From: an uncultured virus (IMG/VR IMGVR_UViG_3300036766_000639)
Taxonomy: Duplodnaviria > Heunggongvirae > Uroviricota > Caudoviricetes
Length of the DNA: 20,000 bases
Direction: 5' to 3' (one strand)
IMG/VR virus record: IMGVR_UViG_3300036766_000639
Shown: positions 3,254 through 20,000 of the stretch, in pieces
How positions within the stretch are numbered: the first letter of the stretch is position 1
How the letters are laid out: every line of letters starts with the position of its first letter
Position numbers and translations under genes: made by a program
Notes under the pieces: generated by a model
Databases searched by the model: none
The model's input: the letters and a program-made list of their open reading frames with translations, nothing else
What the model was told of the DNA's origin: nothing

Positions 3254-6253
3254 CTACAGAAGCGCGTGTCCGAGCGCGCCAGCAAACCCGGAATCCTCCG
3301 CCTTGGCACTCTTGCCGCCGGTGATCTCCGCGTCCTCTGGATGCACGGTCTGCAAACCGGCCTTGTCCCACTTGACCTTGACCGCTCCGCTTCCCTTCTT
3401 GGGGTTGTCTGACGGCCAGCGCCCGTACTCGTTGCTGACGACCGTTCCCATCTCACCCTTCTTCGGGTGGTACTCGCGGTACATGCTCGCCCTCATCGCG
3501 GCGGGGCTGAACTTCACGCGCGATCCTGCGTGGAATGACGGCTTAGCCATCTCGGTCGCCTCGTCCAGATCGATATCCTCGTTGGACTTCTGCACCGTGA
3601 TCTTCGGCAGCTTGCCGCTGGAGACGAAGGCGTCGATCTGCTTCACCAGCTTCGTGACCGGCGGGAAGCCGTCGTTGAACCGCTTGCTGAGAGACCACTT
3701 GAGCTTCTCCATGGCCTCCGACGAGTCGCTGCCTTCGACGTCCTTGACGTCGTCTCGGACCTTGCCCAGGGCGCCAAGCAAGAGACTGAGCCGGTGGATG
3801 TTGCCGCGGCCGCCGCGCTTGGTTTCACCGGCGATCTGCTTCTTGTCGTACTGCGTGAGGTGGCTCGACAGGATTGTCAGAAAGGTTCCGACCTTGCCGT
3901 TCGTGGCCTCTGTCAGGTTGGCGCCGTCGCCGTCGAGACTGTCCTCTTTGACAGCACGTAACGGCTTCATCTCGTAACTGAAGTCGTCCGGCTTGCCGCC
4001 ACTCTTGGCGATGATGCCCTTGGCCTGCTTCACGGCGTCGTCCTCATCACGAGCTGTGACCGTGTGAACCGGAAGCTTCTTGCCGGACTTGAGGTTGGTG
4101 GCCCATCCAGAGAACTTTTTGCCGCCGCCCTCGCTGAGCTTGTACTTATTGATCGCAGCCACGACCGCGGCCTCGATGTCTTCACCGGACGCGGCCGCAT
4201 CGGCGCCAGCCTTGTGGATCTTGCCGAGGTCCATGATGTGGAACTGGATGTTGTTGCCGTGCTGCTTGAACAGCCGGTTGATCTCGGCATCGAGCTTCTT
4301 GCCCTTGAGTTTGGCAGCCTCATCCAGCTCGCCGATGCCAGAGGCCAGAGCGTCGCCAAGGCTCTCCGCCTTGCCCTTCTCTACCTTCGCGGCGGCAGAG
4401 CGCGCCTGCTCGGCCGAGTCGAACGGACCGGCGACCTTCTTCCAGCCGTCAGCTTTCCTCTGGAAGACGTTGAACTTGCCGTCTTTGGCTGGCATCACGT
4501 CCGTGTCGCCGATCTTGTTCTCGCCGGAGCCCTGCGGATCGAGACCGCCCTCGTCGAGCGACTCCTTGACAAGCTCGCTGCGCTTCTTCTTCTCCATCGC
4601 CGCGATCAGTTCCTTGACGAGCTTGCCGCCCTTGTCGTCGTAGACCTTGTGCGACCGACCGCTCATGCCAGGAAAGTCCTTGCCGCGCATGCGATCGAAG
4701 TCGATGCGGCCAGCCGGGCCAGACAGCTCGAACTCGCCCATGCCCATGTGCTTCAGCTCCATCCCCTTGATGATGGCGTCCGGTTGCCAGGTGTGACCCA
4801 GGAACGCGGTGTCCACGAAGTAGCTCTTGCCGTCGAAGAAGTGGTGGCCGTTCTGCTCCTCGGTGAGCGCGCCCTCCATGACGAGCGCAACCTCGAAGGC
4901 GTCATCGGCGGACTCGGCAGAGACCTTCTTGGCAACGGACTCGTTGATAACGAGCCGCTCGTACAGCTCGGCCGCTTCGCGCCCTGCCTCGTCGAGGTCG
5001 CCGCCGCTGAGCATCTTGTCGTATGCCTCGGCCATGCTGACGCGCTCGTCCGGGGCGATATCGTGGATCGACTCGCGCCCTGGAACGGCGTCGTAGACAC
5101 TCGTGAACTTCTCCTCAGCCGTGTACTGAGTCGGCTTCAACACCTTGGCTACGCCCAGCGGATCGACCGTCTCAGGCTTCGCCGTTTTGTTGTCGCGAAC
5201 GACGTCGTCGATGATCGCGGCGACTGCCGCGTTCACGTTCACCGTGGTCTCGCCCGGCTTGTCCGGCGGCAGCGCGTATGCCGGTTCGTATCCAGCGTCG
5301 CCCGGATCAGCATGAGCATCCACGCTCACGGCGGACTCGCGGCCCTCGCCGACCCAGCCCATCGCCTTGAGCTTGGCACGCGACGGATTGTGAAACGCGG
5401 CGTCCATGACCTGGTAGCCGGTCTTCTTCTCGCCGCCCATTTTGTCGAGCGCAGCGTCGGCCGTCTTCGATCCGGTGAAGATGTCGTTGCCGACAGCCTT
5501 GCCGGTCTTCTTGTCGATGATGACGAACCACTGGCCGGAACGAGATGACTCGCCCATTGCTGACGACAGGTCGCCGCTGAGGCCCTCGCTCTTGGTCTTC
5601 TTGGCGCGCGACTTCTCGCAGTCGTCGCATCCACAGTCCTCCGGCTCGCCGCCGCATCCGCAGTCGCCCTTGGCTTCTTCCTTCTTGCGGACGGGCTTGT
5701 CGCCCTTGACCTTGTAGTGCGACTCGTCGCCCTTGCCCTTCATCCACCAGGCCAGCGCCCAAGGGTTTTCAATGTCCTTGTGCTTCTTCTTCATCGCGAG
5801 GACCGTGCCCTCAAACCCTGGCGGGGATACTTCGCCGAGGTTCGCGCTCACGGCATCGCTCGACGCGGCCATTGGCTCGCGATCGCCGACGTAGTGCGGA
5901 GCCCGCGTCGAAGTGGCCCGCTGCGTGATGCTCCTGATCGCGTAGTCCACGATCTGCTTCTGCTCGCGAGCGTCCAGCTCCATTCCCTTGGCCGCCTTTT
6001 CCAGGGCTGCACGAAATCGCTTCTGGTCGTGATCCGAAAGGCTGCCGAAACCGCCACCGCCACCGCCTCCCTGGCCGCCCTTGCTTATGGCGGCCCGGTA
6101 GAGCTTCACACCCTCCCCTTCGAGTGCGCCGAACAGCTCGACGACGTCCAGTGGCAACTTGTCGAGCGTTCGCTCGTCGAGTTCGTTGTCCTCGACCAGG
6201 GCTTCGAGGACCCGCGCTTCGATTACGCTCGCCATATACTCGGTCATCATCAT
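3254..6253 (-). CDS. large Lys/Glu-rich polyprotein-like putative internal head protein (~999 aa)
   Basis: Start reassigned to ATG 6253 (ATGA overlap with the stop at 6250-6252). Small basic domains are separated by acidic LDEA/LDEG/LTEA/LSEG linkers. Includes a PPGFEGTVLAMKKKHKDIENPWALAWWMK module and a C-terminal SH3-like module. Ends in a double TAG stop. Confidence 0.75.
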   Translation of the reverse strand: MMMTEYMASVIEARVLEALVEDNELDERTLDKLPLDVVELFGALEGEGVKLYRAAISKGGQGGGGGGGFGSLSDHDQKRFRAALEKAAKGMELDAREQKQIVDYAIRSITQRATSTRAPHYVGDREPMAASSDAVSANLGEVSPPGFEGTVLAMKKKHKDIENPWALAWWMKGKGDESHYKVKGDKPVRKKEEAKGDCGCGGEPEDCGCDDCEKSRAKKTKSEGLSGDLSSAMGESSRSGQWFVIIDKKTGKAVGNDIFTGSKTADAALDKMGGEKKTGYQVMDAAFHNPSRAKLKAMGWVGEGRESAVSVDAHADPGDAGYEPAYALPPDKPGETTVNVNAAVAAIIDDVVRDNKTAKPETVDPLGVAKVLKPTQYTAEEKFTSVYDAVPGRESIHDIAPDERVSMAEAYDKMLSGGDLDEAGREAAELYERLVINESVAKKVSAESADDAFEVALVMEGALTEEQNGHHFFDGKSYFVDTAFLGHTWQPDAIIKGMELKHMGMGEFELSGPAGRIDFDRMRGKDFPGMSGRSHKVYDDKGGKLVKELIAAMEKKKRSELVKESLDEGGLDPQGSGENKIGDTDVMPAKDGKFNVFQRKADGWKKVAGPFDSAEQARSAAAKVEKGKAESLGDALASGIGELDEAAKLKGKKLDAEINRLFKQHGNNIQFHIMDLGKIHKAGADAAASGEDIEAAVVAAINKYKLSEGGGKKFSGWATNLKSGKKLPVHTVTARDEDDAVKQAKGIIAKSGGKPDDFSYEMKPLRAVKEDSLDGDGANLTEATNGKVGTFLTILSSHLTQYDKKQIAGETKRGGRGNIHRLSLLLGALGKVRDDVKDVEGSDSSEAMEKLKWSLSKRFNDGFPPVTKLVKQIDAFVSSGKLPKITVQKSNEDIDLDEATEMAKPSFHAGSRVKFSPAAMRASMYREYHPKKGEMGTVVSNEYGRWPSDNPKKGSGAVKVKWDKAGLQTVHPEDAEITGGKSAKAEDSGFAGALGHALL

Positions 6254-6753
6254 GGGCTGCCTACCAGATTCTCCGTGCCTTGCACGGCTGCGACGATACT
6301 CACAGTGAGCACTGCTCCGACCACAAAACCACCGATCAGCGCGAGATGCGGAGCATTTCGATCGAACCAAGAACGCTCAGCGGCCGTCCATGCACGCTTC
6401 GTCTCGGCTTCGGACGCGATCAGGTAGCTCTCATAAATTTCGCGCTCGCGACCCCAGGTGTTGAGGTCCACTTCGTAGAGCCGACGCAGCTCATCGTACG
6501 AGACGATGTACCGGGCGGACCGCATGGCCTTCTCCTGCGACATGAGGATGCCAGACCTGCCGTCGGGCACGGTCTCGCCCGCCTCCATCGGGATGACCCA
6601 GCTGGCCGCGGACGGAATGGCATCAGCGTCAGGCCGCTCCGGCAACTTGGCTGCCACCAGCGGTGACGGGAGCGTGCGCTTCTCGGGCGATGCAGCTGTA
6701 GTGGCCGAACAAGCGACCGCCAGGACCAGCAGCATCGGCAATACAAGGCGCAT
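6250..6753 (-). CDS. lipoprotein with coiled coil and C-terminal TM helix (spanin-like)
   Basis: Start ATG 6753: MRLVLPMLLVLAVA-C lipobox, a helical middle region, and a C-terminal hydrophobic segment LALIGGFVVGAVLTVSIVAAV. 167 aa. Confidence 0.65.
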   Translation of the reverse strand: MRLVLPMLLVLAVACSATTAASPEKRTLPSPLVAAKLPERPDADAIPSAASWVIPMEAGETVPDGRSGILMSQEKAMRSARYIVSYDELRRLYEVDLNTWGREREIYESYLIASEAETKRAWTAAERSWFDRNAPHLALIGGFVVGAVLTVSIVAAVQGTENLVGSP

Positions 6754-7232: not shown

Positions 7233-7649
7233 ATGGACGAAGCTGTCACCACCCTGCTCAGTACGGGCGCCCTCATCCTTGGCCTGACTGCCTTTATCGG
7301 CACCTTTATCATCCGCCGCATCGTCGAAACGGCGGTCCCGACTGCGCGCAAGCAGGCAGACGCCAACGCTCCCGGCGCCACGTATTCGACCCCGTTCTCC
7401 CGCTGGTGGAACGAGGTCATCCTGTACGCCATGCCAGCCATCATCGGCGGCAGCTGCGGAGCCGTGAACCTCGGGGAAGCACTGAACAGCGACGCTGGCA
7501 AGACCCTCTGGGGCAGGATGTTCTTCGGCATGATCGTCGGCTTCTTCTCGGGCTTCATCTACAAGGTAGCCCGCAAGCTCCTCAAGAAGACCACCGGCGT
7601 GGATCTCGAACCGGAGCGCGGCGGAAGCATCGAGCCGCCGACTCCGTGA
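7233..7649 (+). CDS. holin-like membrane protein with 3 hydrophobic segments (138 aa)
   Basis: Start reassigned to ATG 7233 (SD GGAGG at 7223-7227). TM candidates are ALILGLTAFIGTFII, VILYAMPAIIGGSCGAV and MFFGMIVGFFSGFIY, followed by a basic tail KVARKLLKK. This is the only credible plus-strand gene. Confidence 0.65.
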   Translation: MDEAVTTLLSTGALILGLTAFIGTFIIRRIVETAVPTARKQADANAPGATYSTPFSRWWNEVILYAMPAIIGGSCGAVNLGEALNSDAGKTLWGRMFFGMIVGFFSGFIYKVARKLLKKTTGVDLEPERGGSIEPPTP

Positions 7650-7662
7650 CTTTGTTGCGCGC

Positions 7663-7890
7663 CTAGCCCTCTTTCTTCCTGGGCACGTATATGTGGACGA
7701 CGTCGTCGCTCGTCTTCTCATGATCGGCCTTTGCCGCCTCGGCCGCCTCGCGCGTTAGGTAGTGGCCAATCAGGTACAATTCGTCGCCGTCTTCCTCGAA
7801 TGAGTCCACGCCGACGACGTTGAACCCCTCGTCTGGAATGAACCGATCCATGGCTCTGACTCGCGTCATCACCGTGTCCATGAAGCTCAT
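7663..7890 (-). CDS. small acidic protein downstream of the SAS (candidate antitoxin/partner, 75 aa)
   Basis: Start reassigned to ATG 7890 (MSFMDTVMTRV...FNVVGVDSFEEDGDELYLIGHY...), downstream of its own promoter. Confidence 0.7.
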   Translation of the reverse strand: MSFMDTVMTRVRAMDRFIPDEGFNVVGVDSFEEDGDELYLIGHYLTREAAEAAKADHEKTSDDVVHIYVPRKKEG

Positions 7891-7945: not shown

Positions 7946-8935
7946 CTAGTCTAGGCACCCAAACGGCGACTTGGACAGAACCTCTGGACATTTTGGCTGC
8001 TCTCCAGGCTTCCCGCCTTCGTCGATGTTCGAGTAGTAGTCGGACATGTCAGCCGCGTACTTGTCCATCTGCTTTCGCAGCTCTGGCGTGTCGTTGATCC
8101 GGTCGATGTAATCGCGCTGATCGGTCTCGGTCGGCTTGTAAATGTGATGGCTCCACTCGGCCCACTTGTGCTGGTTTGGCGTACGAAACTGGACCTCCTT
8201 CGCCAAGCCATCATCGTCAGTGAACTCCGCATGGATCGATCTGTACCCATCTGAGCGCCCGCGCGTGAGCATGTCCTCGGATGAGAGAATGCGGTCGCCG
8301 TACTTGTCCTGGAACTTCTTGAACATCTCGCGCACGCCGTTGTTGTCCTCGGCCAGGACACGCGCGCCGGTCAGATCCTTGAGCTTGTCGGCACGATTCA
8401 GGTGCGGTCGGCTCATGTCGAATTTGCCGCCTGGGAGCGGCTTGTGGTGCTTTCTGCTGAGCTTGCCGAGCACGCTCGACAGCGTCTTGATTCGCCCGGA
8501 CACCCGATGGTAGCAGCCCTTCTCCTTGCCATTCACCATCTTGCACGGACCACCGAGCGTCTCCGGGGCGCCCTTTGGCACAATCTCTCTGAGAACACCG
8601 AGCATTCTATCCAAGGATGCAGCGTGGCGACCGATCTGGCGCTTGGCGACCTCAATGTGCTTTCCGAAAGACAGGCTGCTGTCGAGATTGCCCATCAGCC
8701 AGTCGTGCCTCAAATCGCGCACGGCGCTCTTGAGGTTGCCGCGCTCCTTCGCTGCGCGCTTGACGGCCTCCTCGTCATCGCGGACCTGTCCGCCGCCGCC
8801 CTGGCCAGCCTTGTATCTGACCCAGGAGCCGGTGCCGACCTTGATGCGTTTTCCGTCGCCCCACGGCCTGACCGTGCCAGGCTTGAACGTCATCTCGGAC
8901 AGCACTGCTTCGCTCAACTCTTGCGAGAACGTCAC
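7946..8935 (-). CDS. RelA/SpoT-family small alarmone synthetase (monofunctional SAS) with an N-terminal extension (329 aa)
   Basis: Start reassigned to GTG 8935 (SD GGAGG; GTGA overlap). Synthetase motifs: GRIKTLSSVLGK, DLTGARV, GYRSIH, EVQFRT...WAEWSH.IYK. No HD hydrolase domain. Confidence 0.9.
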   Translation of the reverse strand: MTFSQELSEAVLSEMTFKPGTVRPWGDGKRIKVGTGSWVRYKAGQGGGGQVRDDEEAVKRAAKERGNLKSAVRDLRHDWLMGNLDSSLSFGKHIEVAKRQIGRHAASLDRMLGVLREIVPKGAPETLGGPCKMVNGKEKGCYHRVSGRIKTLSSVLGKLSRKHHKPLPGGKFDMSRPHLNRADKLKDLTGARVLAEDNNGVREMFKKFQDKYGDRILSSEDMLTRGRSDGYRSIHAEFTDDDGLAKEVQFRTPNQHKWAEWSHHIYKPTETDQRDYIDRINDTPELRKQMDKYAADMSDYYSNIDEGGKPGEQPKCPEVLSKSPFGCLD

Positions 8936-9708
8936 GCTGCCTCCGGCCATTTCGCGGCAAGTTTGCCTACAGTAACTTGTAACCTGGCAGCCGTTTCCCG
9001 GTCCAGTTTCCAGCCCGTCAACGCCTTGGCGAATGCGTCCTTGAACCGCGACACCGAGAACTTCCCGCCCCATGTCTCGTGGTCGGCTGTCGAGAAGCTC
9101 CGAACCCAGATCCTCTCCGCCAGGGCCTCTAGCAACCCCGTGACTGATATGGCGCGCGATGGGTTCACCTCTAAGGCGTCGCGGTCCTGCAAATACAAGG
9201 CGAATGTCGGGCTATCCCCGGTCAGCTCGGCGCCGAGCTGCACAATGCCGAGGCCGACATCGCTCATCTCATCCGCGACGCGCTTCAGCGCAGCAAGCGT
9301 CGGCCGCAGCTCATCATCCTTGTAGCCCCAGACATTGACCACCTCGAACCCGGCCACGGACAGCTCGGCGCTCGTGTTGCCGATGCCGTCCCGCACGGCT
9401 TCCAGCACGTCGGCGACCACTTCGGCCAGAGCCCGGATCTTCTCAGACGCCGGGCGCTGTGACAGCGACGACATGAGCATGTTGTGAGCCGCCCGGCGTA
9501 GGCGTCCGCGTAGTTTGGACACCTCTGGCCGCGAGCCATGCAGGGCCTCGGCGATCGGCTTCACCAGCTCAGACAACTGCTTGAGTCTGAATCGACTGGT
9601 GCCGACAACCGACACCGCGACCGCCGTTTGCTCCAGCTCTGTGCGCGCGCTTTCGATATTGCGCGGCAAGAGCGGGTCACCGGCGACGCGAAGCAGGTTC
9701 GTAGGCAT
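8932..9708 (-). CDS. hypothetical protein, C-terminal half possibly a degenerate zincin-like fold (258 aa)
   Basis: Tightly packed ORF. The segment ALYLQDRDALEVN...GLLEALAERIW resembles HExxH-region architecture but lacks the His residues. Confidence 0.7.
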   Translation of the reverse strand: MPTNLLRVAGDPLLPRNIESARTELEQTAVAVSVVGTSRFRLKQLSELVKPIAEALHGSRPEVSKLRGRLRRAAHNMLMSSLSQRPASEKIRALAEVVADVLEAVRDGIGNTSAELSVAGFEVVNVWGYKDDELRPTLAALKRVADEMSDVGLGIVQLGAELTGDSPTFALYLQDRDALEVNPSRAISVTGLLEALAERIWVRSFSTADHETWGGKFSVSRFKDAFAKALTGWKLDRETAARLQVTVGKLAAKWPEAA

Positions 9709-9711
9709 GGT

Positions 9712-10041
9712 TCAAAGGTTTGAGGCCAAAAATGCCGCGAGCGCCTCTCGGGCAGCCTTCGGATCCGTCTTGCCCTTCGCCTCGATGACGTCGAGCTGCT
9801 TGTTGGTGTCTTCGGCCTGGGTCCGGATACGGGCCTTCTCGACCTCGCCCTCCAAATGCACGCGCTCGACCTGTTCGCGGGCGCGCTCGATGAGCTTCGG
9901 CGACACGGTCACCGGCTGAGCGTCTGGCGCACGTGGGCCGAACACGCGCCAGAGCGCGACGCCTACGACGCCAGCGCCGAGCGCGAGCGCCCACCACCAT
10001 CGCCTGATGAACCGCCAGGCCGCCTGAGCCTGCTTCTTCAT
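9712..10041 (-). CDS. N-terminally anchored membrane coiled-coil protein (i-spanin-like, 109 aa)
   Basis: Start reassigned to ATG 10041 (ATGA overlap): MKKQAQAAWRFIRRWWWALALGAGVVGVALW followed by a charged helical region. Confidence 0.65.
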   Translation of the reverse strand: MKKQAQAAWRFIRRWWWALALGAGVVGVALWRVFGPRAPDAQPVTVSPKLIERAREQVERVHLEGEVEKARIRTQAEDTNKQLDVIEAKGKTDPKAAREALAAFLASNL

Positions 10042-10217: not shown

Positions 10218-11189
10218 TCAATCTCCTGGCAGGTCGTCTGGCACCCACCGGTTGTGTTTCTGTCCCGGAGCCCAGTCTCGCGCGCCGGAGAGTTTCACGC
10301 CACCCTCCTCGTTGGACTCCTCGTCGTCAGATTCATCGTCATCGTCCGCCTCGGGCTCGTCGGCACTCGTCTGCCCCCCGTCACGGGTGACGGCCAATAT
10401 GGCAGCCAGCTCGTCGTCCGACATGTCGCCCAAGCCTTCGAGCTTGGTCATCACGTGCTCGATGATGCGCTCGACCACCTCCTCTACCGCGGCGTCATCG
10501 TTCTCGTAGATGGGCCAGCCGCGCATCATCACGTGCGCGAACAGCGCCGCCCTGGCCGCGCTCTTGAGCAGGGTTTCGGCCACAAAGTGAGTGCCGAGCG
10601 CCACCGCTGTGACGTGCCCGATCCCGCCGAGCGCAATGGTCCCGGCGATCGTCGTGCCAATGGCCTTGGCGGCGCCCTTGAGCGCATGCTTGTCGTGCTT
10701 GCTGAGCTTCTGCCTGAGCGCGAGCTTCTTGAGCGCGTGGCCAGCGTCCTTCATCTCGCGAACCTCAGACACCACGGACTTCGTGGCATCGAGGCTCTTG
10801 CGCTTCAGAGCCGCGGCCATAGCGTGCCCTGTCTTGGCGCGAAAATCGCGATCGGTTGCCAGCTTGCGGGCGTCGGCTGGAAACCCCTTGATCTTGGCGA
10901 GAAGCCCCTTGGCAATCGCCGGAGCCTTGGCCAGGGCGGACTTCGCCTTGTCAGCGATGCTCGTTGGCTCGGCGACCTCATCGTCCGCGTCGTCCGCGTC
11001 CTTTTCAGGCTCTGCGCCCGATTCGGGCCCGCCACCGGCGCCAGGCGTCGCAGACTTGCCGGTGGCCTTGTCGATCCATCCCTTGGCCGTTTTGATGACA
11101 GTTCCCTGGGACCACTTGCGCTCGGTTCCAATTTTGAACCCGCGCTCGTGCAGCGCCCCCTCCAGCTCTGCCGCGGTAGTCCGGATCAT
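10218..11189 (-). CDS. putative head-packaged protein with shared N-terminal module, basic helices, hydrophobic segment and acidic tail (323 aa)
   Basis: Start reassigned to ATG 11189 (ATGA overlap; SD GAGGG). Begins MIRTTAAELEGALHERGFKIGTERKW. Hydrophobic stretch AIGTTIAGTIALGGIGHVTAVALG, then a D/E-rich C-terminus. Confidence 0.75.
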   Translation of the reverse strand: MIRTTAAELEGALHERGFKIGTERKWSQGTVIKTAKGWIDKATGKSATPGAGGGPESGAEPEKDADDADDEVAEPTSIADKAKSALAKAPAIAKGLLAKIKGFPADARKLATDRDFRAKTGHAMAAALKRKSLDATKSVVSEVREMKDAGHALKKLALRQKLSKHDKHALKGAAKAIGTTIAGTIALGGIGHVTAVALGTHFVAETLLKSAARAALFAHVMMRGWPIYENDDAAVEEVVERIIEHVMTKLEGLGDMSDDELAAILAVTRDGGQTSADEPEADDDDESDDEESNEEGGVKLSGARDWAPGQKHNRWVPDDLPGD

Positions 11190-12124
11190 GTGCCCTCTCG
11201 CTCGGCGGTCACCGGCGACCTCTCCAGCTCGCGCGCAATGTCCTTGCGCTTCAGCTCTCCTGGGTGGCCGGACTTCGTCTGGAAGTACCGCCTGAACAAG
11301 ATGTCGGCCATCTCGGTGCCGCTCACGCGACGCATGTAGATGTAGAACATGAGTGCGGCGTCGTCCGGCGCGGACTGCAAGTGCTTGTGCGCCCTCGGAG
11401 AGAACTGCCTGAGCTTGGCGAGCCACCTGTGGAAAGCGTCGCGCGGCTTGTTCGCGATACGATCCTGCGCGTCTGGCATGTCCTTGCCGCCGACCATCTT
11501 CGGCAGGTCCTCTTGCGGGATCATGTCGATGATCTTGCGAGCCGAGCGAAGCAAGGCGTCGCCAGCGGACACGATGCCGGTCTCCTTCTTGAGGAGATCG
11601 AGCACCTTGCTGGAGACCTTGAACGCGCCCCGCTTGGTTTGCTTTTCGTCGCCAGGGAATGCCAGCGCCGGGTCTTCTCGGCCCTCGCTCAACCCGTCTC
11701 CGACTTTCACTTCCTGCACCGGCATCCCGTATCCGTGATCCTTGCTCGACGTACTGGGCTTGCCGAGCTGAGGCTCGCCGGGCCCGCGCCTGCTGAAGCC
11801 CGCGACGATGCGGGCCAGATCCTCATCCGGGACGTTCGCGATCACTGCGCTGGCGGCGCGACCACGGGAGTCGAAGTAGACAATCGCCTCCGATCCGTCG
11901 GCCTTGTCGAACTTGTGCCGAGCAGGCGTGTTGGCGAGCACGAACCGCTCGGCCTTGGCACGCCATTCAGGATCATCTTGCTGGACACCGATCACACTGG
12001 ATCCGCGCTCAAACTCCGGGTGACCAGGCGCTTCTTCTGATACGGTTCTGGCTTTCAAAGGCATCGGACTGCCTGAAAAGCCCGACGGATCGATATAGCC
12101 CATCAAATTGGCGAAGCGACTCAT
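11186..12124 (-). CDS. two-module hypothetical protein (312 aa)
   Basis: ATGA-coupled on both sides. Two compact regions are separated by a low-complexity linker ending in GLSEG. Confidence 0.75.
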   Translation of the reverse strand: MSRFANLMGYIDPSGFSGSPMPLKARTVSEEAPGHPEFERGSSVIGVQQDDPEWRAKAERFVLANTPARHKFDKADGSEAIVYFDSRGRAASAVIANVPDEDLARIVAGFSRRGPGEPQLGKPSTSSKDHGYGMPVQEVKVGDGLSEGREDPALAFPGDEKQTKRGAFKVSSKVLDLLKKETGIVSAGDALLRSARKIIDMIPQEDLPKMVGGKDMPDAQDRIANKPRDAFHRWLAKLRQFSPRAHKHLQSAPDDAALMFYIYMRRVSGTEMADILFRRYFQTKSGHPGELKRKDIARELERSPVTAEREGT

Positions 12125-13455
12125 CGCGGTCTCCTTTGCGCAGCGCGGACCATGGTATCAGCTCTCGCCTGTGGTGGCTTGCGTCCCAGGGGGCGCCGAC
12201 GAATCACAGGGCCATCGGCATAGCTCTGGTACCGGCCGGATTCCGAATCGGCCGGAGAAGCCGACGGGCTGATTCCCACGCCGTGCGCGGTATCGGCCTG
12301 TATGACAACCTCGGCCACTGCCTGCGTCTTCGCTCGGTCGCGGCCGGACGTTCGAGACTGAACATCTTCCAGTGGAACCAGGAGGACTTCGTCCTGGTAC
12401 TTCACCTTCAACGCCGATCCGGGAGACCTCGGTTTGTACGGCGTGAGCATGGACGCGCTCGTGGAGCCCTTGGGAACAGCCGCCCACTGATAGGGGATCA
12501 CGTCGAACTTGATGTACTCGACCGTGACCTCGGGCGGCCCATCGAACGCAGCGAGCGTGTGGATATGCCATCCCTTGCCAGGGTGCATGACCACGGCCCG
12601 CGACGTCCGGACAACAACCTGATCGCCCTTGCGGAGAGTCCGGCTGTCCTCGTTCGATAGCCGCTCCAAGAATGCCGCAAGCCGATCGGATTCCATCAGA
12701 ACGCGCCCGAGCCTCTCGGCCCACTCTTTCTTCCCCGAGCCAATGCTGGGGTCCGTGAGGCTGCGCTTCTCGACGCCCGGATGAGCGTTCACCAGGTCGA
12801 GCAGCGGCCTGATCGGAATGCCAACGCGGATGACGTTCATCTCCTCGTCCGCTCCAACGGCGAGCAGAGCAGCCCACCGATGATGTCCATCGACGATGTA
12901 GCCATCCTTGCTAATGACGATCGCGTTCTTGATGCCGTCGAACTTGCCGTCGAGGTACGCGCCAGCCATGCCAATCGTTTTTTCGGCCTGAATCTCCTCT
13001 TGGCTGGCCTTGAGCTGGCCGACCTTGACCTTGCCCTCGGTGATGCGAACACCGCTCGCCTTGAGCTTGCCCAGGAAGTCATCGCGGACCTTGTTGTCCG
13101 GGAACTGCGGCATCTTGTCGCGCGTGATGCCAAGGTTGTCGTGACACACCGGAGGGTTGATCTTGCAGAGGTCGGCGGACTTATCGATCCCTCTCTCGAC
13201 GGCCTTGGCGAGCTTCTCGTGGCCTGGGCCGGTGAGCTTCAGCTTGTACTTTTCGATGACGGTCGCCGCCTGCGTCTTCGGCTCCGCTGGCTTCTCAGCC
13301 GCCTTCGTCTTCGGCTCCCCTGGCTTCTCGGACGCGGCCTTGTCTACCGGCTTCCACTTCGAGCCCGCCCAGACGTAATCACGTCCCCAGAACACCCTGC
13401 GGTCGCCCGTCTTGGCGTCTCTCTCCAGCAATGCTGTCACGACGTTGCGGATCAT
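12121..13455 (-). CDS. ParB/Sulfiredoxin N-terminal-domain protein with shared N-terminal module and SH3-like C-terminal region (444 aa)
   Basis: VKVGQLKASQEEI...AIVISKDGYIVDGHHRWAA is the ParB/Srx DGHHR signature. ATGA-coupled on both sides. Confidence 0.85.
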   Translation of the reverse strand: MIRNVVTALLERDAKTGDRRVFWGRDYVWAGSKWKPVDKAASEKPGEPKTKAAEKPAEPKTQAATVIEKYKLKLTGPGHEKLAKAVERGIDKSADLCKINPPVCHDNLGITRDKMPQFPDNKVRDDFLGKLKASGVRITEGKVKVGQLKASQEEIQAEKTIGMAGAYLDGKFDGIKNAIVISKDGYIVDGHHRWAALLAVGADEEMNVIRVGIPIRPLLDLVNAHPGVEKRSLTDPSIGSGKKEWAERLGRVLMESDRLAAFLERLSNEDSRTLRKGDQVVVRTSRAVVMHPGKGWHIHTLAAFDGPPEVTVEYIKFDVIPYQWAAVPKGSTSASMLTPYKPRSPGSALKVKYQDEVLLVPLEDVQSRTSGRDRAKTQAVAEVVIQADTAHGVGISPSASPADSESGRYQSYADGPVIRRRPLGRKPPQARADTMVRAAQRRPR

Positions 13456-13702: not shown

Positions 13703-14503
13703 TCAGAATCCGCCGATTCTTTTCTCCAGGATTTCGCCAGTCTGACCGCTGAACACCGCCAACGAGGTCACCTCAGACGCTCCGAGCATGTCGCCTCGAC
13801 TATGGAAGCGCACCGAGCTTCCCTGCTGTACGACCTCGGCGAACTCCAGCGCGACCTCAACGATGCGCGGCTTGCCGTTCGGGAACCACGCCTCGTAGGT
13901 CACTTCGCATCCAGTCATGACTGTCACGAGGCCCTCGGAGCCGTCATGCGACAGCCCGCTGTTCTCGAACACGAGCATGGCTTTCGGCGGCTCGCTTACG
14001 CGCACGCTGCCTTCGCGGTAGAGCGGGTACGTGAAGTACCGCAGCCACTTGACGGCTGCTTCGATGGGCGGCTCGCGAGCCGGGTCGCCTTCCCTTGGCC
14101 CAAGCCCAACGGCACTTGCCGCCGACTTCAAAAACCCGCCGAGGTTCGTGGTCTTCGAGTCGTCGGGCTCATGATCGCGCGCGAACACGGCCGTGAAACT
14201 CAGGCGACGCTCGCCGCCATGCGTCCACTGATAGATGGGATGCGACCCGCCGGGAATGTTGCGCGGGTTCCATTCGCTCGATCGACTGTCGGTCAACGAT
14301 TCGGGCCAATACTGGAGCGCGATCTTAGTCGCGTTTCCACCGGCGGCGGCGCGTGCCGCAGCATCGGTGCCACCCCTGTTTGATGCCCATGGGACGATCT
14401 CGTCATCTGCCGTGTCGATAGCCCAAAGGTAGACCTGCTTCAGCCTCGGCAATGGCTGAAGGCCGGTGATCGACGAGACGATGCTTGTTGGAAGCGCTGG
14501 CAC
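13703..14503 (-). CDS. contractile-tail tube-initiator / CIS-tube-like baseplate protein (266 aa)
   Basis: LQYWPESLTDSRSSEW...IPGGSHPIYQWTHGGERRLSFTAVF...EPPKAMLVF...VMTGCEVTYEAWFPNGKPRIVEVALEFAE follows the CIS tube/tube-initiator pattern. Confidence 0.8.
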   Translation of the reverse strand: MPALPTSIVSSITGLQPLPRLKQVYLWAIDTADDEIVPWASNRGGTDAAARAAAGGNATKIALQYWPESLTDSRSSEWNPRNIPGGSHPIYQWTHGGERRLSFTAVFARDHEPDDSKTTNLGGFLKSAASAVGLGPREGDPAREPPIEAAVKWLRYFTYPLYREGSVRVSEPPKAMLVFENSGLSHDGSEGLVTVMTGCEVTYEAWFPNGKPRIVEVALEFAEVVQQGSSVRFHSRGDMLGASEVTSLAVFSGQTGEILEKRIGGF

Positions 14504-14513
14504 TATTTACCAA

Positions 14514-15140
14514 TCATCGGTTATCGACGATCGCGTTGACGCTCTCCACCGTGGTTGCCGCCGCCACCTGCGCCTTCAGCGCAGCTCCGCCATCGCGGAT
14601 TGCGCGGATTGCGGTCACGGCCGCAGCATGGAACTCCTCCACCGCCGCCGCGTCTTCCAGCGATACGGAATCGAGATCGTTCTTCACGAAGAAGACGACC
14701 GGATACGCGAAACTTGGCGCATTTCTGCTGTTGAATGCACCGGTGATGTTCAGCTGCGACACCTCGGACAGACCAAACAGCTTGCCGCTTGCAGGAGGGT
14801 ACTCGAAGCCACCAGCGGCAATCAGCGCGACAGTTTTTTGTCTGATGTCGGCTAGCTTTTGGGTTTGGGCCTTAACAAAAGGCACGCCCGCGCCAGCGTG
14901 CGCAGCAATGATCTGATCTAGGACAACCAGGTCCGCTTCAGAAATCCCTACAGCAAACACAAACTGCGCCACAGCAGACTGTGTCTGGCCAACTACACCA
15001 ATAGTAGGCTGCTGAGACAGCGCCGAAGCGGCTACTTCATTCATCAACGATGATGAGTCGAACGCTCCGTTAGCAGCTTGCGCATCCCCATAGCCGATAT
15101 GGGTAGTTCCGATCCTTTGATCTGGTCTTGGGCCTGGCAT
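14514..15140 (-). CDS. DUF4376-like tail-fibre-associated protein (208 aa)
   Basis: Directly follows the fibre gene. C-terminal pattern IAAGGFEY...SQLNITG...ALKAQVAAATTVESVNAI. Confidence 0.65.
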   Translation of the reverse strand: MPGPRPDQRIGTTHIGYGDAQAANGAFDSSSLMNEVAASALSQQPTIGVVGQTQSAVAQFVFAVGISEADLVVLDQIIAAHAGAGVPFVKAQTQKLADIRQKTVALIAAGGFEYPPASGKLFGLSEVSQLNITGAFNSRNAPSFAYPVVFFVKNDLDSVSLEDAAAVEEFHAAAVTAIRAIRDGGAALKAQVAAATTVESVNAIVDNR

Positions 15141-15149
15141 GTTCAGTTC

Positions 15150-17336
15150 CTATATATCCGATGGTCCGCCGACCTCCAGGCGCACCAACGCCCCGAGAAG
15201 TTTAGAGGTGTTGGAGAAAAAGCTACCGCCCACGCGGCACTCAAACTGCGTGCTTCCATACGCATACGCAGGCGCACCAGGAAGCAGGCTAAGTATTTGC
15301 CTGCCTAGCCCAACACCAGCAGCCGACGCTAGTAGCGAAACCACAGGCACAGGTGGCACAGGTATATAATAGTTCGTGTCCCATTTATGGAGGGTTGCTG
15401 TCACCCCGGTGCCCGCCTGGTCAATCAAAAGTTTGACCTCCAAGATCGCGCAGCCTGGCGGTATAACAAGCGCCACAACCCAAGTGCAAGTGCCTAGTTG
15501 GTTGTTCCAGTGCGCCTCTGTTGCTGGCGCAGAGGCAGCGATGTACGACCCGTTACTGCTGACCAGATTGAAATCGCTAACCGGAACGACGTAGGTGACT
15601 TCGCGGACAGTGTCGTACTGATAGCTTCCTTCGTTGCGTACATATTCCTCAAGATAAAGAACGCCGCCAAGACGGAGGCTTTCCATGTACGGCGACGTGC
15701 TCCACGCGGCATCCGACCAAGGAACGGCTGTGACGAACTTACCCCGCATGTCCACGCCGGTATTCTGATACGCGGTCTTAGACGCCTTCTCGGTAGTGTC
15801 ATCCGCATTCCAGAATTGATCGCCGCCGCCGCCCCAGCGTGCGTTGACGGTGAAAACCATGCCTTTTTCGAGTGCGGGAGCCGTCTTCGCATAAACCCTG
15901 GCGCGGACATTCGAGGATTGCGAAAGACGGTAGGCGTGCAGCAGCTTATACGTATGCGGGATCGTGTCCTGATCCGCCGTGGAGTCCGTGCCACTAATGC
16001 CGAAGGCATTTGGCCCAAAGTCTTGATCTACGACCTTCAGGATGTACGGCGTGTCCCAACGCGGAACATTGATCGTCTGCTTGTTGCCTGCCTTGGACAG
16101 CGACAAAACCAGGTCCAGGGCCGGGGATATAACGGACGTTACCCGAGCTACAGCGCTCTGAGCGATCCGACTCAACGCTCCAGTCGGTACGAGATCCAGT
16201 CCCATGCCGCGAAGCACCGGCAGCGAAACCTCTCCGATGGCCGCACCTTCGTCGTCAACGACTGAAGCCTGCGGTTGCAGGAACATGCGCAGGTCCGCCA
16301 CGTAGAACGTGCTGGGACCTACACCAAGGTCTACCGCCGCTTCCAAGTGCCACACGAAGTAGCCAGCAACAGGCGCGGTGAACGTCCCGACCAGCTGCGC
16401 GTACGAGAACGTGCCCACATGAATCGCGGCGCTGCTCGCCACTTGGGCGGTGCTTTGGAGCACATCCGCCGCGTCGTAAAACGTGACGATCAAGCGCAGG
16501 CCATTGGTGCCATTGGTGTACGCCCCAACAGTCACGCCCGAAAGCCACAGCGACACGTCGATGTCTTGTCCCGCGCGCACAGGCACAACGCCGCCGTCCA
16601 GGGGGTTGAGGCTGCTGTACTGGCCGGGACCGATCTTGGCCGTGGATGCGACGTTGGGAATCGCAATCTCCAAGGCGCTTGTTCCAGAGCGCGGATTCGT
16701 ACCGTTCACAGCAACAGTGGCTGCGCCTGTAACCTCCCCAGTAAACCCAGGAATGGTCTGCAAAAAACCGGGAATGGCGTTGCCGTCGCTCTCGTCGAAG
16801 GATCCGTTTTTGATAATCTGATGCCAAGACCGAGATGCCGCACCGGCAACTTGCTTCCATGGCAGCGTGCTCTCCGCCACAGATACGGCGCTGGCCGGGA
16901 TCACTCCAGCTCCTGGCACGGCAACGACACCGAGAACGATCAACTCATTCTTTTCCGGCGCAGCGTTGTAGTCGGCCACCGAGTAGACGCGAAGCTCTGC
17001 CACCGTTGCCGAACTGATCGTGTATTCGGCGAACAGAACCACGTAGACCGTGGAATTGGCGAATGCCGTAAGCGGGACCGAGATGGTACCGCCGCTCCTA
17101 CGCAAGGTGAGCGAGAATCCGAGCAACGATTCGTAGACAGCGAGGTGTCGGCCAAGAGAGTCCGAATCCAACTGAGCCGTCAACGGAGCGAGGCTCGGGG
17201 CAAGAGCGAAGCCACGATAGATGCCGCGCGGGATGACACCCGCGAGCTTGGCGTTCAGCCCCTCCGAGACGTAGGTCTCGGCGAACCGCATCTTGACGTC
17301 GCTACTTGGGAAGCTCTGAATTGTGGTGGCGGCCAT
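15150..17336 (-). CDS. tail fibre / receptor-binding protein with a CBM-like jelly-roll domain (728 aa)
   Basis: Beta-rich. Has an N-terminal anchor LAGVIPRGIYRGF and a CBM-like start IIKNGSFDE...PRSGTSALEI. Located after the tail-collar gene, with SD AGGAG. Confidence 0.7.
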   Translation of the reverse strand: MAATTIQSFPSSDVKMRFAETYVSEGLNAKLAGVIPRGIYRGFALAPSLAPLTAQLDSDSLGRHLAVYESLLGFSLTLRRSGGTISVPLTAFANSTVYVVLFAEYTISSATVAELRVYSVADYNAAPEKNELIVLGVVAVPGAGVIPASAVSVAESTLPWKQVAGAASRSWHQIIKNGSFDESDGNAIPGFLQTIPGFTGEVTGAATVAVNGTNPRSGTSALEIAIPNVASTAKIGPGQYSSLNPLDGGVVPVRAGQDIDVSLWLSGVTVGAYTNGTNGLRLIVTFYDAADVLQSTAQVASSAAIHVGTFSYAQLVGTFTAPVAGYFVWHLEAAVDLGVGPSTFYVADLRMFLQPQASVVDDEGAAIGEVSLPVLRGMGLDLVPTGALSRIAQSAVARVTSVISPALDLVLSLSKAGNKQTINVPRWDTPYILKVVDQDFGPNAFGISGTDSTADQDTIPHTYKLLHAYRLSQSSNVRARVYAKTAPALEKGMVFTVNARWGGGGDQFWNADDTTEKASKTAYQNTGVDMRGKFVTAVPWSDAAWSTSPYMESLRLGGVLYLEEYVRNEGSYQYDTVREVTYVVPVSDFNLVSSNGSYIAASAPATEAHWNNQLGTCTWVVALVIPPGCAILEVKLLIDQAGTGVTATLHKWDTNYYIPVPPVPVVSLLASAAGVGLGRQILSLLPGAPAYAYGSTQFECRVGGSFFSNTSKLLGALVRLEVGGPSDI

Positions 17337-17354
17337 GGTCCTTCTCCTACTAGA

Positions 17355-18077
17355 TCACCACACTAACTCGATTATATGATTTAGCTGAATGACCAGTGTC
17401 TTGGTCTCATCCGGGAACGTCATATACACGAGCATGACGTTGTTCGCATCGAACAGCCCAAGCTCGAAGAACTGCGGGTTGTTGCCGAGCTGATCAGCGC
17501 TCGCCTCGGCCGCGAGCACGATGGCCGTGACCTCGGTGATGGCTGGCACGCCCGAGGTGAACAGCACGTCCGAGTTGGCCATGGCCTTGCGGAACGTAAA
17601 CAACGGCTCGGCCGCCTTGTGGCACCGACGCGCCTCGGCGAGCAAGTGCGTCCCGCCGACGTATGGCGCGACCAGCGTGATCGAGTTGTTGGTGTTCACG
17701 AACAGAACCTGGCCCCAGCCGTCCTCCTCGGAGCCAGGCTGACCGGCCGCATTCACGAACGCCGACGGCAGCGGGCCTGGCTTGATCCAATCGCCCACGG
17801 CGACGTCGGCCAAGAACGTCGTGCCAGATCCGATCACGGCCGCCGACCCGTTCGTGAACTCGCAAAACCCGCCACCGGCAAGCGGTGTGCCTTCGGACTG
17901 CAAGTCGCGGAAAGTCGGGTCCGGCGTAATCGGCGTCTTCGGTGGCAGGTCGATGAACCCGCCTTCGCCGATCTTGAAGTGCGTGATCTCGGCCTGAACA
18001 TCGGCGACGTCGCGCGCGTACACCCGCGCAAGGATCTCGCGCCATCCTTCCTGGACGATTGCTTGGACGGTCGCCAC
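17355..18077 (-). CDS. tail-collar fibre (DUF3751-like) baseplate protein with an inserted beta module (240 aa)
   Basis: EGWREILA...ITHFKIGEGG...P...L at the N-terminus and FELGLFDANNVMLVYMTFPDETK at the C-terminus. Confidence 0.75.
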   Translation of the reverse strand: MATVQAIVQEGWREILARVYARDVADVQAEITHFKIGEGGFIDLPPKTPITPDPTFRDLQSEGTPLAGGGFCEFTNGSAAVIGSGTTFLADVAVGDWIKPGPLPSAFVNAAGQPGSEEDGWGQVLFVNTNNSITLVAPYVGGTHLLAEARRCHKAAEPLFTFRKAMANSDVLFTSGVPAITEVTAIVLAAEASADQLGNNPQFFELGLFDANNVMLVYMTFPDETKTLVIQLNHIIELVW

Positions 18078-18096
18078 GTACTCTCCTGGTCTGACC

Positions 18097-19845
18097 CTAC
18101 GGGGTCGTCGAAACGCTGCCTGAGACTATCAGATGTGAAGGATCAACCGGAATCACATCTGCGGGAATGAGATCATAGTAGAAGCCGACGCTTGCCACAG
18201 CGGTCACGGCCCGGCCCGCGACCGCCTGGACCGACACGTTGATTGGCACCTGGACTGGCCCAATGACCTGGACGACCTCGGTGACGCGCACATGAGCCGG
18301 GATGACACCGAGAATTTTCGCGACCAACCGTTCCAGGACTCCATCCAGCAGAGCGTCAGGATCGGAGAAAACCTCGACCGGCACGACCTCGACGCGGATC
18401 ACGCTCGCCCGACAGTAGCCGCAGCTCGGCGCAATCCGGCACTGGTAGCTCGCGTTGGCCTCGGTCCCGAAGTTCGGCGCGGTGCCTGCCAGGATCTCGA
18501 ACTCCCATTCGCCCGGCAGTCCTTCGACCGGCAGCGTCTCCAGGAAATGCTTGACCCCCGGAATGGTCGGGAACTCGGCGTACCAGAACCCGATGGCTGC
18601 AACCGTGTGCATGTCCGCCGGGCCCACGCGCACGCGCCAGCGCCCGCCTGTGAGGTCCGTGGCGCTGAGGATTGGCATGGCCTGCGTGTACGACGAGATT
18701 GCGTCATCGACGCTCGTACCATCCGGCAGGGGGCCCGGCGGCGGCGTGATGCCGTCGGTCGTCCAGTCGGGCGTCTCCCAGCAGAACAGATCAAGCGGGA
18801 TCGTGTCTGCGGCGATCTCGTCGAAGCGAGGCCGCAGCGGATCGAGGGTCGTGTAGAATTTGCCGCTGCCAGGCGGAACCTCGAACACCTCGTTGAGCGG
18901 AAGCGCTGACGGCACCGTATCCAGCCGCCACAGCGCGTATGCCACAGCTCGGTACCCGGCAATCTTGGCAATGATGTCGTACGACTTCTGGGCGCCCTTG
19001 AGCGAGAGCCACTGGCTGATGTCGTGCACGGAGCTGCGCTGGAACGACTCCGGCTCGTGCGTGTCCACTTCCAGCCCGAAATCCTCGCCGAGGAACTGGA
19101 TGAGCGCTGGCGGCCTGATCACCGCCGCTCCGCGGACGCCCTGGGTCACGACCGATGACACCGCCAGGCCCGTCGTGGAGCCCTGATACGGGCCCTCTAG
19201 GACGAGGGCGAGGTTGCTGGTCACGCTCAGCACCCTGGACGCGCGGCCGCCCGCTCGCGGGGCCACGTAGTCGCCAGGAGAGACCTCGGCGAGGAACAGG
19301 GTCCCGGTGCCGACCGCGCTTGTGGAGCCAGCCACGAATTGGACCGATCCCGTCAGCATGTCGCCAGCCTGCACGGCCGACGTTGGCAGCTCGGCGCTGC
19401 CCACCAGCTCTACCGTCGGACCGATGTCGCGGAGCTTGTGAACGGCGTTGACCGTGTACTCGCGACCGGCGGCGTCCTTCAGAATCCACCCAACGGACAC
19501 CTTCCCCAGTGGCGAGAACGGATCGGTGTCCAGATCCTCCAGCCTGGAGTCGATGGTCCGGCCGGTGGACCCCGTGACCGAGTCAAGGATGTTGACCTCG
19601 ATGCGCCCCTGGAACTGAGTGCGGACGCGATCCGGATCGCGCAGATCGCCGAACCTACGGGCGAACCGCAACAGCTCGTCGAACGTCGGCCTCAGCGCAT
19701 CGGTGAACAGCTCCAGTCGGCCGCCGCCGATACCGGCATCAAGCCGACGATCGATCGCAGGCAGGTCTCGAAACAAGACCTGCTTCGCCCAGTCGTACTG
19801 CCCAAAAGGACCGTGTCCAAACGGACCGTAGCCGAAGCCTGGCAT
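18097..19845 (-). CDS. baseplate wedge / P2 gpI-like phage tail protein (582 aa)
   Basis: LFRDLPAIDRRLD, LIQFLGEDFGL...WLSLKGAQKSYDIIAKIAGY and the C-terminal VIPAHV are typical of wedge proteins. It precedes the collar and fibre genes. Confidence 0.7.
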   Translation of the reverse strand: MPGFGYGPFGHGPFGQYDWAKQVLFRDLPAIDRRLDAGIGGGRLELFTDALRPTFDELLRFARRFGDLRDPDRVRTQFQGRIEVNILDSVTGSTGRTIDSRLEDLDTDPFSPLGKVSVGWILKDAAGREYTVNAVHKLRDIGPTVELVGSAELPTSAVQAGDMLTGSVQFVAGSTSAVGTGTLFLAEVSPGDYVAPRAGGRASRVLSVTSNLALVLEGPYQGSTTGLAVSSVVTQGVRGAAVIRPPALIQFLGEDFGLEVDTHEPESFQRSSVHDISQWLSLKGAQKSYDIIAKIAGYRAVAYALWRLDTVPSALPLNEVFEVPPGSGKFYTTLDPLRPRFDEIAADTIPLDLFCWETPDWTTDGITPPPGPLPDGTSVDDAISSYTQAMPILSATDLTGGRWRVRVGPADMHTVAAIGFWYAEFPTIPGVKHFLETLPVEGLPGEWEFEILAGTAPNFGTEANASYQCRIAPSCGYCRASVIRVEVVPVEVFSDPDALLDGVLERLVAKILGVIPAHVRVTEVVQVIGPVQVPINVSVQAVAGRAVTAVASVGFYYDLIPADVIPVDPSHLIVSGSVSTTP

Positions 19846-19912
19846 ATCTCGTCAAATCCTCGCGGCCGCCACGCACGCAGCTTACCTAGCCTATGCCGTA
19901 CCGACAAGGCTC

Positions 19913-20000
19913 TTACTTGGTGGTTCGCACGGCCCCGCGCTCTAGCAGCAAGTTGAACACCTTGCTGTTCACAGCCTCTTGAACATCGGTGTTGTAGGTC
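19913..20000 (-). CDS. 3' end of an upstream gene (partial)
   Basis: Open frame ...TYNTDVQEAVNSKVFNLLLERGAVRTTK* ending at TAA 19913-19915. Confidence 0.5.
   Translation of the reverse strand, partial: TYNTDVQEAVNSKVFNLLLERGAVRTTK

Follow-up and report, generated by a model that had tools for sequence, protein, structure and literature searches.

What role does a gene for an alarmone synthetase play downstream of the tail genes of a phage? The gene considered here lies in a stretch of 20,000 nucleotides from the uncultured virus IMGVR_UViG_3300036766_000639 (Caudoviricetes), referred to below as the window, and encodes a small alarmone synthetase (SAS), that is, a RelA/SpoT homolog (RSH) with a synthetase domain only. 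The window comprises bases 51467-71466 of a linear IMG/VR record of 71,466 bp, for which CheckV gives a completeness of ca 37%. A preliminary description of this DNA had proposed a possible toxic SAS (toxSAS) that may be delivered with the virion.

We examine this proposal by means of profile searches, residue conservation and the gene order of related loci, and weigh it against other roles of the enzyme. We will show that the gene is intact and that it belongs to a clade in which the same domain is fused to portal proteins and to domains known from polyvalent proteins. The reading towards which we lean, and which we hold to be probable by a modest measure, is that of a virion-carried, toxin-like effector with a cognate small inhibitor.

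The synthetase and its clade

The gene is read from the minus strand, a point on which the preliminary description was silent, and it lies inside a full open reading frame (ORF) of 7946..9073. Its GTG start (8935-8933) overlaps the TGA stop of the preceding gene (8934-8932) as GTGA, with a GGAGG 4 nt upstream. At the related locus L006, which is 82% identical at the DNA level, the junction is TGATG behind GGAGG, and none of the homologs extends further N-terminally than the GTG at 8935. These three features together confirm the translational coupling to the preceding gene (8932-9708) that had been noted earlier.

RelA_SpoT (PF04607; E 1.3e-14, 54.8 bits against a cut-off of 27) is the sole Pfam domain of the protein. 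Neither an HD hydrolase nor a TGS or ACT regulatory domain was found in Pfam, NCBIfam and PDB searches, in line with the earlier remark that a hydrolase is lacking. The NCBIfam models for long RSH proteins score far below their cut-offs, only the synthetase core is recognised by NCBIfam, PHROGs (phrog_4773) and PADLOC (PDC-S33), and the ESM Atlas returned only RelA_SpoT clusters, with scores below 0.9. The nearest solved structures, by sequence as well as by fold, are small alarmone synthetases of the RelQ/RelP type. By its domain score, its syn1-4 motifs and its lack of HD, TGS and ACT domains, the protein belongs to the small alarmone synthetase class of the RSH superfamily.

The four synthetase motifs, which had been placed at ca 8130-8500, are intact within the Pfam match, with the catalytic residues present. 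They read RxKxxxSxxxK (R148/K150/S154/K158), DxxGxR (D187/G190/R192), GYRSxH (G230-Y-R-S-x-H235) and ExQxRT (E247/Q249/R251/T252), followed by H263/Y266/K267. In an alignment of 71 family members, used here for residue conservation, R148, K150, S154, K158, D187, Y231, H235, E247, Q249 and T252 are invariant, and G190 and R232 are kept in 90% or more of the sequences; for R192, G230, S233 and R251, invariance is limited to the six closest members. Compared with L006, the ratio of non-synonymous to synonymous substitution rates (dN/dS) of the gene is 0.33, which means that it is under purifying selection. The gene is thus confirmed as a real, intact, synthetase-only RSH.

A word-based search for homologs finds 4 to 7 relatives only, and a profile search of viral contigs with the first alignment gave no match. 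The family that emerges from an exhaustive profile search is far larger: it counts 4425 cluster representatives at E<=1e-3, of which 393 reach E<=1e-10 and 92 reach E<=1e-30. Family statistics refer to 154 members that were examined. In 144 of them, no more than 15 aa separate the end of the synthetase from the C-terminus; 95 members have at most 345 aa, 39 have 346-600 aa and 20 are longer.

What precedes the synthetase in the long forms was determined by a Pfam scan of 54 family matches of at least 383 aa. Further domains were found in 16 of these, some of which carry more than one. The most frequent is Phage_portal_3, in six proteins (P0056, P0071, P0115, P0129, P0146, P0162), followed by InPase in four and Zeta_toxin in three. 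LPD1, ddrB-ParB, ART and DUF5661 occur once each, the ART domain in P0129, which has a portal domain too, and single matches to MuF (weak) and DSPc fall below the cut-off. Relatives with several effector domains are P0084, P0088, P0090, P0091, P0113, P0124, P0129, P0154 and P0165. A synthetase that is fused to a portal protein is physically part of the virion.

The gene neighbourhoods of relatives carry similar information. Scans of IMG/VR with DNA patterns yielded seven further loci on distinct contigs (L008, L009, L012-L016; L010 and L011 are identical to the L008 and L009 contigs). In L008, a low-GC contig, the SAS gene is placed between the large terminase and the portal genes. In L009 a protein of at least 447 aa has the synthetase at its C-terminal end, where a long Gly-rich linker precedes it, and the genes that follow encode the partner protein discussed below, MuF, DUF2213, a cement protein and the major capsid protein. 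L012 has a 988-aa portal-synthetase fusion, followed by an HD_4 gene, a protein with an N-terminal partner domain, and MuF. By analogy with Aph1 for Apk2, this HD_4 gene is likely to provide an enzymatic immunity. In L015, MuF lies ca 4.3 kb upstream of the SAS gene.

The remaining three loci, L013, L014 and L016, are on contigs of 82-198 kb from deep relatives of the window phage, and their SAS proteins are 27-32% identical to the one studied here. The order in all three is tube-like gene, 13452-type gene, 11186-type gene, membrane protein, SAS, partner, 85-aa gene, lipoprotein/transmembrane gene and Gam. The position of the SAS gene after the tube-like gene and before the lipoprotein/transmembrane gene and Gam is thus common to these phages and the window. 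Taken together, the portal, polyvalent and ART fusions and the terminase-portal and MuF neighbourhoods lend strong, if indirect, support to the guess that the protein is associated with the virion.

Partner gene, cysteine tail and N-terminal module

Downstream of the SAS gene lies a small gene whose acidic product has, by sequence count, 17 D/E against 9 K/R. A homolog of it stands downstream of the synthetase on the same strand at all ten loci compared (the window, L005, L006, L008, L009 and L012-L016). It is the next ORF at nine of them, and L012 has it as a domain within a larger ORF after the hydrolase gene. The partner family consists of 16 clusters, all of them unnamed and none with a Pfam domain, and the literature searched contained no description of it. 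The partner of the window is without the YxxY motif, in the form in which the available description gives this motif for ATfaRel2 and pZFD. Relative to L006, the SAS gene and its partner have the highest non-synonymous rates (dN) of the neighbourhood, 0.18 vs 0.05-0.12. We predict that the partner is an immunity protein or inhibitor of the synthetase.

The preliminary description had drawn attention to two cysteine pairs as unusual for an SAS. Both pairs exist, but their conservation is very different. The first, C131/C141, is part of an insertion that occurs in three of the 71 aligned members. The second, C316/C327, sits in a C-terminal tail with the pattern P-C-P-x-x-V-x-x-x-F-G-C-L, and each of its cysteines is present in 60 of the 71 members. 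More generally, two cysteines 8-14 residues apart occur within the last 32 aa of 120 of the 154 members, with a spacing of 10 in 104, and outside this tail pair the median number of cysteines in the stand-alone forms is zero. No Pfam domain covers the two-cysteine tail and no description of it was found in the literature searched. We speculate that it may serve as a disulfide or redox latch. A zinc site formed by H163/H164 together with C316/C327 was considered as well, and it was rejected because the two histidines are rare (13 and 8 of the 71 members).

At its N-terminus the protein has a short module, consisting of a helix and a beta-hairpin, which is followed by a Gly-rich linker. The module recurs at the N-terminus of the 323-aa protein encoded at 10218-11189 (hmmsearch E 1e-4; hhalign E 2e-5, 44% identity over 36 columns), and it is also found internally in a 534-aa protein elsewhere on the contig (hmmsearch E 1.4e-6). 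A hidden Markov model of the module has matches in 37 of the 154 family members, for the most part at the N-termini of stand-alone proteins. Gly-rich linkers comparable to that of the synthetase are present in the 323-aa protein, in the 999-aa protein at 3254-6253 and in L009. Judged from these recurrences, the module is a predicted targeting or leader module.

A leader of another kind was observed in L008 (4978-7675, 12933-13433, 16846-17643), where six ORFs start with the near-identical sequence 'MKDKSKLxRKvITxKxGxxxTVWVK'. As read from their sequences, they include the SAS, a ParB/Srx-like ORF and an ART-like ORF with R / S-T-S / E-x-E motifs. This leader looks like a targeting or processing signal that would be shared by a set of effector domains.

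Product, virion carriage and competing roles

We now consider what the enzyme may produce. Its syn2/3/4 motifs are GAR / GYRSIH (SxH) / QFR (FR). These agree with the guanosine-type signature and not with RYT / GxN / YH, the signature of Apk2, as the two are contrasted in section 16 of PMC12226406. The family profile finds RelP and RelQ at 1e-25 to 1e-21 and long Rel/RelA proteins at 1e-18 to 1e-15, followed by CapRel at 1e-12 and FaRel2 at 1.6e-8; no Tas1-type chain was matched. On the basis of the motifs and of this ranking, a (p)ppGpp-type product is favoured over (p)ppApp or the pyrophosphorylation of tRNA, with low certainty.

In the reading that we favour, the synthetase would be packaged in the virion, perhaps by way of its N-terminal module and Gly-rich linker, and would act as a toxin-like effector, and the 75-aa partner would bind and silence it in the producing cell. 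A more far-reaching version can be formulated, in which the family is a widespread, undescribed clade of virion-carried (p)ppGpp-type synthetases, delivered either as portal or polyvalent fusions or as stand-alone cargo with a short leader specific to the phage, with an acidic immunity family and a cysteine redox latch that would form a disulfide in the virion and be reduced, and the enzyme thereby active, in the next host. We consider this complete version quite improbable.

A number of observations weigh against the favoured reading. Packaging of the stand-alone form is suggested by analogy to the fused relatives and by the gene position, and in the window the SAS gene follows tail genes, not head genes. 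In Pfam and PHROG scans, no capsid, portal or terminase gene was found on the contig. The 'late structural operon' of the preliminary description therefore holds in so far as the gene follows tail-type genes, but it rests on weak tail-type matches only. At L013, L014 and L016, no structural gene recognisable by Pfam is present in the 6-kb flanks, and in the remaining 38 of the 54 long members RelA_SpoT is found with no informative second domain. The N-terminal leaders of the window and of L008 have no detectable homology, and the comparison of the ParB-like N-terminus with the SAS module was not significant, so this neighbour does not share the module. A first AlphaFold model, built from 6 sequences, is confident only for residues 190-329 and poor for residues 1-190. 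Concerning the product, an exchange of motif signatures is reported to have left the specificity of Apk2 unconverted (PMC12226406), which makes a product call from motifs weak. Finally, (p)ppGpp is described as restricting at least phage T7, the portal of which inhibits RelA and SpoT (bioRxiv 10.64898/2026.01.27.700999), and it is therefore not obvious that a phage would gain from raising (p)ppGpp.

How do other roles compare? An intracellular toxSAS-antitoxin pair, similar to type II toxin-antitoxin systems and acting in abortive infection or superinfection exclusion without any packaging, as PhRel/Gp29-Gp30 of phage Phrann, would fit the presence of a toxin and small-partner pair at ten of ten loci as well as the elevated dN of both genes. 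In addition, the best PHROG and PADLOC matches (phrog_4773, PDC-S33) are SYNTH-domain families of ca 350 aa, and toxSAS defence modules of prophages are documented (PMC7229694). We nevertheless judge such a pair unlikely. A profile search of 185,579 species genomes found no relative of the synthetase, and there is thus no sign of a prophage or of a temperate lifestyle; nor was an integrase found among the 105 contig ORFs scanned. The SAS gene is also coupled into the run of genes behind the tail block, members of its clade occur as fusions to portal and polyvalent proteins, and it is closer to RelP/RelQ than to CapRel/FaRel2. The earlier toxSAS guess is divided by the same evidence, since the partner at all ten loci and the HD_4 gene at one agree with it, but by profile ranking, with RelP/RelQ far above CapRel/FaRel2, the protein is probably outside the named toxSAS subfamilies of solved structure. 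Another option is a late enzyme that stays in the cell, where (p)ppGpp or (p)ppApp would tune nucleotide metabolism, transcription or the timing of lysis, with the partner as a regulator. The housekeeping (guanosine) motifs and the RelP/RelQ-type nearest solved relatives are what one would expect in this case, the contig is rich in ThyX, PAPS-reductase-like, nucleoside 2-deoxyribosyltransferase-like and DHH genes, and the SAS gene lies just upstream of lysis-like membrane genes. This option does not account for the fusions to portal, polyvalent and ART domains, for the fact that 144 of 154 members have the synthetase at the C-terminus, or for the hydrolase and partner of L012, and we regard it as distinctly unlikely.

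The synthetase could instead pyrophosphorylate tRNA at its 3'-CCA end, as CapRel, FaRel2 and PhRel2 do, and so shut down host translation, whether packaged or not. CapRel and FaRel2 are detectable relatives, and the characterised tRNA-targeting toxSAS retain the canonical ATP-site residues (PMC11782079), so the motifs do not speak against this activity; the point counts against the favoured product as well. The family profile, however, is far closer to RelP/RelQ and to long RSH proteins than to CapRel/FaRel2, and in L012 the portal-synthetase fusion is followed by a gene of the alarmone-hydrolase type (HD_4), as in (p)ppApp/(p)ppGpp systems. HD-type hydrolases can also reverse tRNA pyrophosphorylation, for which reason the HD_4 gene is only a weak argument here. 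All in all, a tRNA-modifying activity appears very unlikely to us, and the virion-carried effector with its small inhibitor remains the reading that we prefer.

Gene surroundings and comparison with known systems

The features of the window are collected in Table 1, together with the hydrolase gene of L012.

Table 1. Positions of the features discussed (window numbering unless a locus is named)
Feature	Position	Strand	Remark
Tail-fibre-like gene	18097-19845	-	upstream of SAS; weak to moderate Pfam/PHROG matches
Tail-type gene	17355-18077	-	weak to moderate Pfam/PHROG matches
Tail-type gene	15150-17336	-	weak to moderate Pfam/PHROG matches
DUF4376 gene	14514-15140	-	weak to moderate Pfam/PHROG matches
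Tube-like tail gene	13703-14503	-	weak to moderate Pfam/PHROG matches; tail block spans 13703..19845
ParB/Srx-like protein	12121..13455	-	phrog_2859, E 8e-26
Gene 11186-12124	11186-12124	-	member of the overlapping run after the tail genes
323-aa protein, no assigned function	10218..11189	-	SAS module at N-terminus, then Gly-rich linker
110-aa protein, N-terminal transmembrane helix and coiled coil	9712..10041	-	conserved upstream of the SAS block
258-aa gene, no assigned function	8932..9708	-	GTGA-coupled to SAS; conserved in L006 and L016
SAS gene, 329-aa synthetase-only RSH	7946..8935	-	GTG start 8935, TAG stop 7946-7948
N-terminal module of SAS, ca 46 aa, helix and beta-hairpin	8798..8935	-	'KpGTvRpWgDGkRiKv..GsWvrY'
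Gly-rich linker GQGGGGQ after the module	8786..8806	-	read from the sequence
Insertion GPCKMVNGKEKGCY with first Cys pair (C131, C141)	8510..8551	-	lineage-specific
RelA_SpoT synthetase core, syn motifs 1-4	8135..8497	-	Pfam; residues 193-313 of the long ORF
C-terminal tail PKCPEVLSKSPFGCLD with Cys pair C316, C327	7949..7996	-	family hallmark
Partner, 75-aa acidic protein	7663..7890	-	own ribosome-binding site, 56 nt downstream of the SAS stop
138-aa protein	7233-7649	+	sole plus-strand gene of the region
167-aa protein	6250-6753	-	lipoprotein-type signal (LAVAC), C-terminal transmembrane helix
999-aa protein	3254-6253	-	N-terminal helix, Gly-rich linker
HD_4 protein, RelA/SpoT-type hydrolase fold, 180 aa	L012 5248-5790	-	directly after the portal-synthetase fusion

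Nearly all genes of the contig are on the minus strand. The tail block is followed by 12121-13455, 11186-12124, 10218-11189, 9712-10041, 8932-9708, the SAS gene and the partner, in this order, with a gap of 175 nt between 10218-11189 and 9712-10041. No sigma-70-like promoter on the minus strand and no terminator was found around the SAS gene, a scan that is weak evidence either way. The ParB/Srx-like protein is related to a domain of 'structural protein 5', the giant polyvalent protein of F116-like Pseudomonas phages that has LPD23 and LPD3; its identity to the 3799-aa protein of Epa33 (L007 6481-17880) is 36% over 135 aa. Its residues ca 258-390 were without a match in L006. The ParB-like gene and 10218-11189 are absent from L013, L014 and L016, and the block is therefore variable in this part. 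Searches of PDB sequences with 8932-9708, 3254-6253 and 12121-13455 gave nothing useful.

On the other side of the SAS-partner unit, the partner gene is followed by an 85-aa gene, the lipoprotein/transmembrane gene, the 999-aa protein, a 398-aa protein and Gam. The plus-strand gene converges on the unit; its product has three to four hydrophobic helices, is preceded by a strong GGAGG ribosome-binding site and is 88% conserved in L006, and it could be a holin-like or exclusion protein. The layout of the 167-aa protein, as we read it, matches a unimolecular spanin (u-spanin-like), and a counterpart is found just downstream of the SAS block in L013, L014 and L016. The 999-aa protein, with a GGQGGGGGGGF linker and a CGCGG..CGCDDC cluster, had no match in any family library and may be another cargo-type protein; a stretch of ca 220 nt in this gene did not align between L005 and the window.

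The contig outside the window (1-51466) has three PAPS-reductase-like genes, ThyX, a DHH phosphoesterase and an R2K ATP-grasp protein, together with DUF1643, DUF3310, DUF5662 and a nucleoside 2-deoxyribosyltransferase-like gene. Such a gene content suggests a chemistry that modifies nucleotides or DNA, in a phage of ca 190 kb. At the opposite end, three independent contigs of this lineage, those of the window, L005 and L006, end inside the tail-fibre-like gene or shortly upstream of it (19845-20000 of the window; 69450-71466 in contig numbering), which points to a hypervariable region or a genome end.

The idea of a virion-delivered alarmone synthetase is already in print (Iyer 2017, PMC5512222; Apk2 papers, PMC10083569), and what is new here is therefore the clade, its portal fusions, the partner family, the cysteine tail and the stand-alone, leader-bearing form. 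Portal fusions of this clade were not found in the literature searched; Figure 5C and the supplements of Iyer et al. may show some. Actual virion carriage and injection of phage alarmone-synthetase toxins is described as an open question in the Apk2 literature (PMC10083569). The natural portal-synthetase fusions, the stand-alone forms with short shared leaders and the obligatory small partner offer handles on this question, in a clade that differs from Apk2 by its guanosine-type motifs. If the favoured reading is true, a (p)ppGpp synthetase supplied by the phage itself would be a notable example of viral manipulation of the stringent response, as (p)ppGpp is reported to restrict some phages.

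The preliminary description had regarded phage examples as mostly prophage toxin-antitoxin modules, which omits two groups of systems, the MuF-Apk2 toxins and the polyvalent proteins (PMC5512222, PMC10083569). A toxin domain with a small non-enzymatic protein, with or without a hydrolase, is described for MuF-Apk2 and Bxa, and Apk2 itself, a toxin of the MuF type, comes with a small immunity protein that is not an enzyme and with a hydrolase (PMC10083569, PMC11699363, PMC12226406). In MuF-Apk2, the N-terminal domain is MuF, the C-terminal domain is a (p)ppApp synthetase, the immunity protein is Tis1-like and the hydrolase is Aph1. The clade studied here resembles this arrangement in its C-terminal RelA/SpoT-fold domain, its placement in morphogenesis modules, its small non-enzymatic partner ORF, the HD-type hydrolase of L012 and the MuF genes that adjoin the relatives in L009, L012 and L015. 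The clade differs in that its profile has no Tas1-type match, and a temperate lifestyle is not indicated for the window phage. Since the window SAS has neither a MuF (PF04233) domain nor Apk-type motifs, it stands outside the MuF-Apk2 family.

The likeness to polyvalent proteins lies in the InPase, Zeta_toxin, LPD1, ddrB-ParB, ART and portal fusions of the clade and, in the window, in the ParB-like gene related to the F116/Epa33 polyvalent protein. RelA/SpoT, DdrB-like ParB, InPase, Zeta and ART all belong to the repertoire of phage-type polyvalent proteins (Iyer, Burroughs, Anand, de Souza, Aravind 2017), and the RelA/SpoT domains of these proteins are predicted to be packaged and injected effectors (Iyer et al. 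2017, PMC5512222) that would act early, a predicted role like the one proposed here. Polyvalent proteins have 2 to 15 effector domains, whereas the window SAS has a single catalytic domain, for which reason it is not itself a polyvalent protein. The window instead has separate, 'disaggregated' ORFs, two of which share a short N-terminal module and Gly-rich linker, unlike polyvalent proteins, and no zincin-like MPTase processing domain was seen in it.

Among the other RSH enzymes, RelQ and RelP (SAS1/SAS2) give the best matches to the core in sequence and fold, with syn motifs that are identical in type. The window SAS is set apart from them by an extra N-terminal region of 146 aa, by its Cys-pair tail and by being phage-encoded, and its clade by the conserved small partner gene and the fusions to virion proteins. 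The toxSAS enzymes (CapRel, PhRel, PhRel2, FaRel, FaRel2) share with it the architecture of a synthetase-only RSH with a small partner, which in toxSAS is neutralising, and some of them are phage-borne, but the profile similarity to CapRel/FaRel2 is much weaker than that to RelP/RelQ, and the context is one of virion morphogenesis and not of a defence island or prophage. The window SAS does belong to the clade that MuF- and polyvalent-type systems use.

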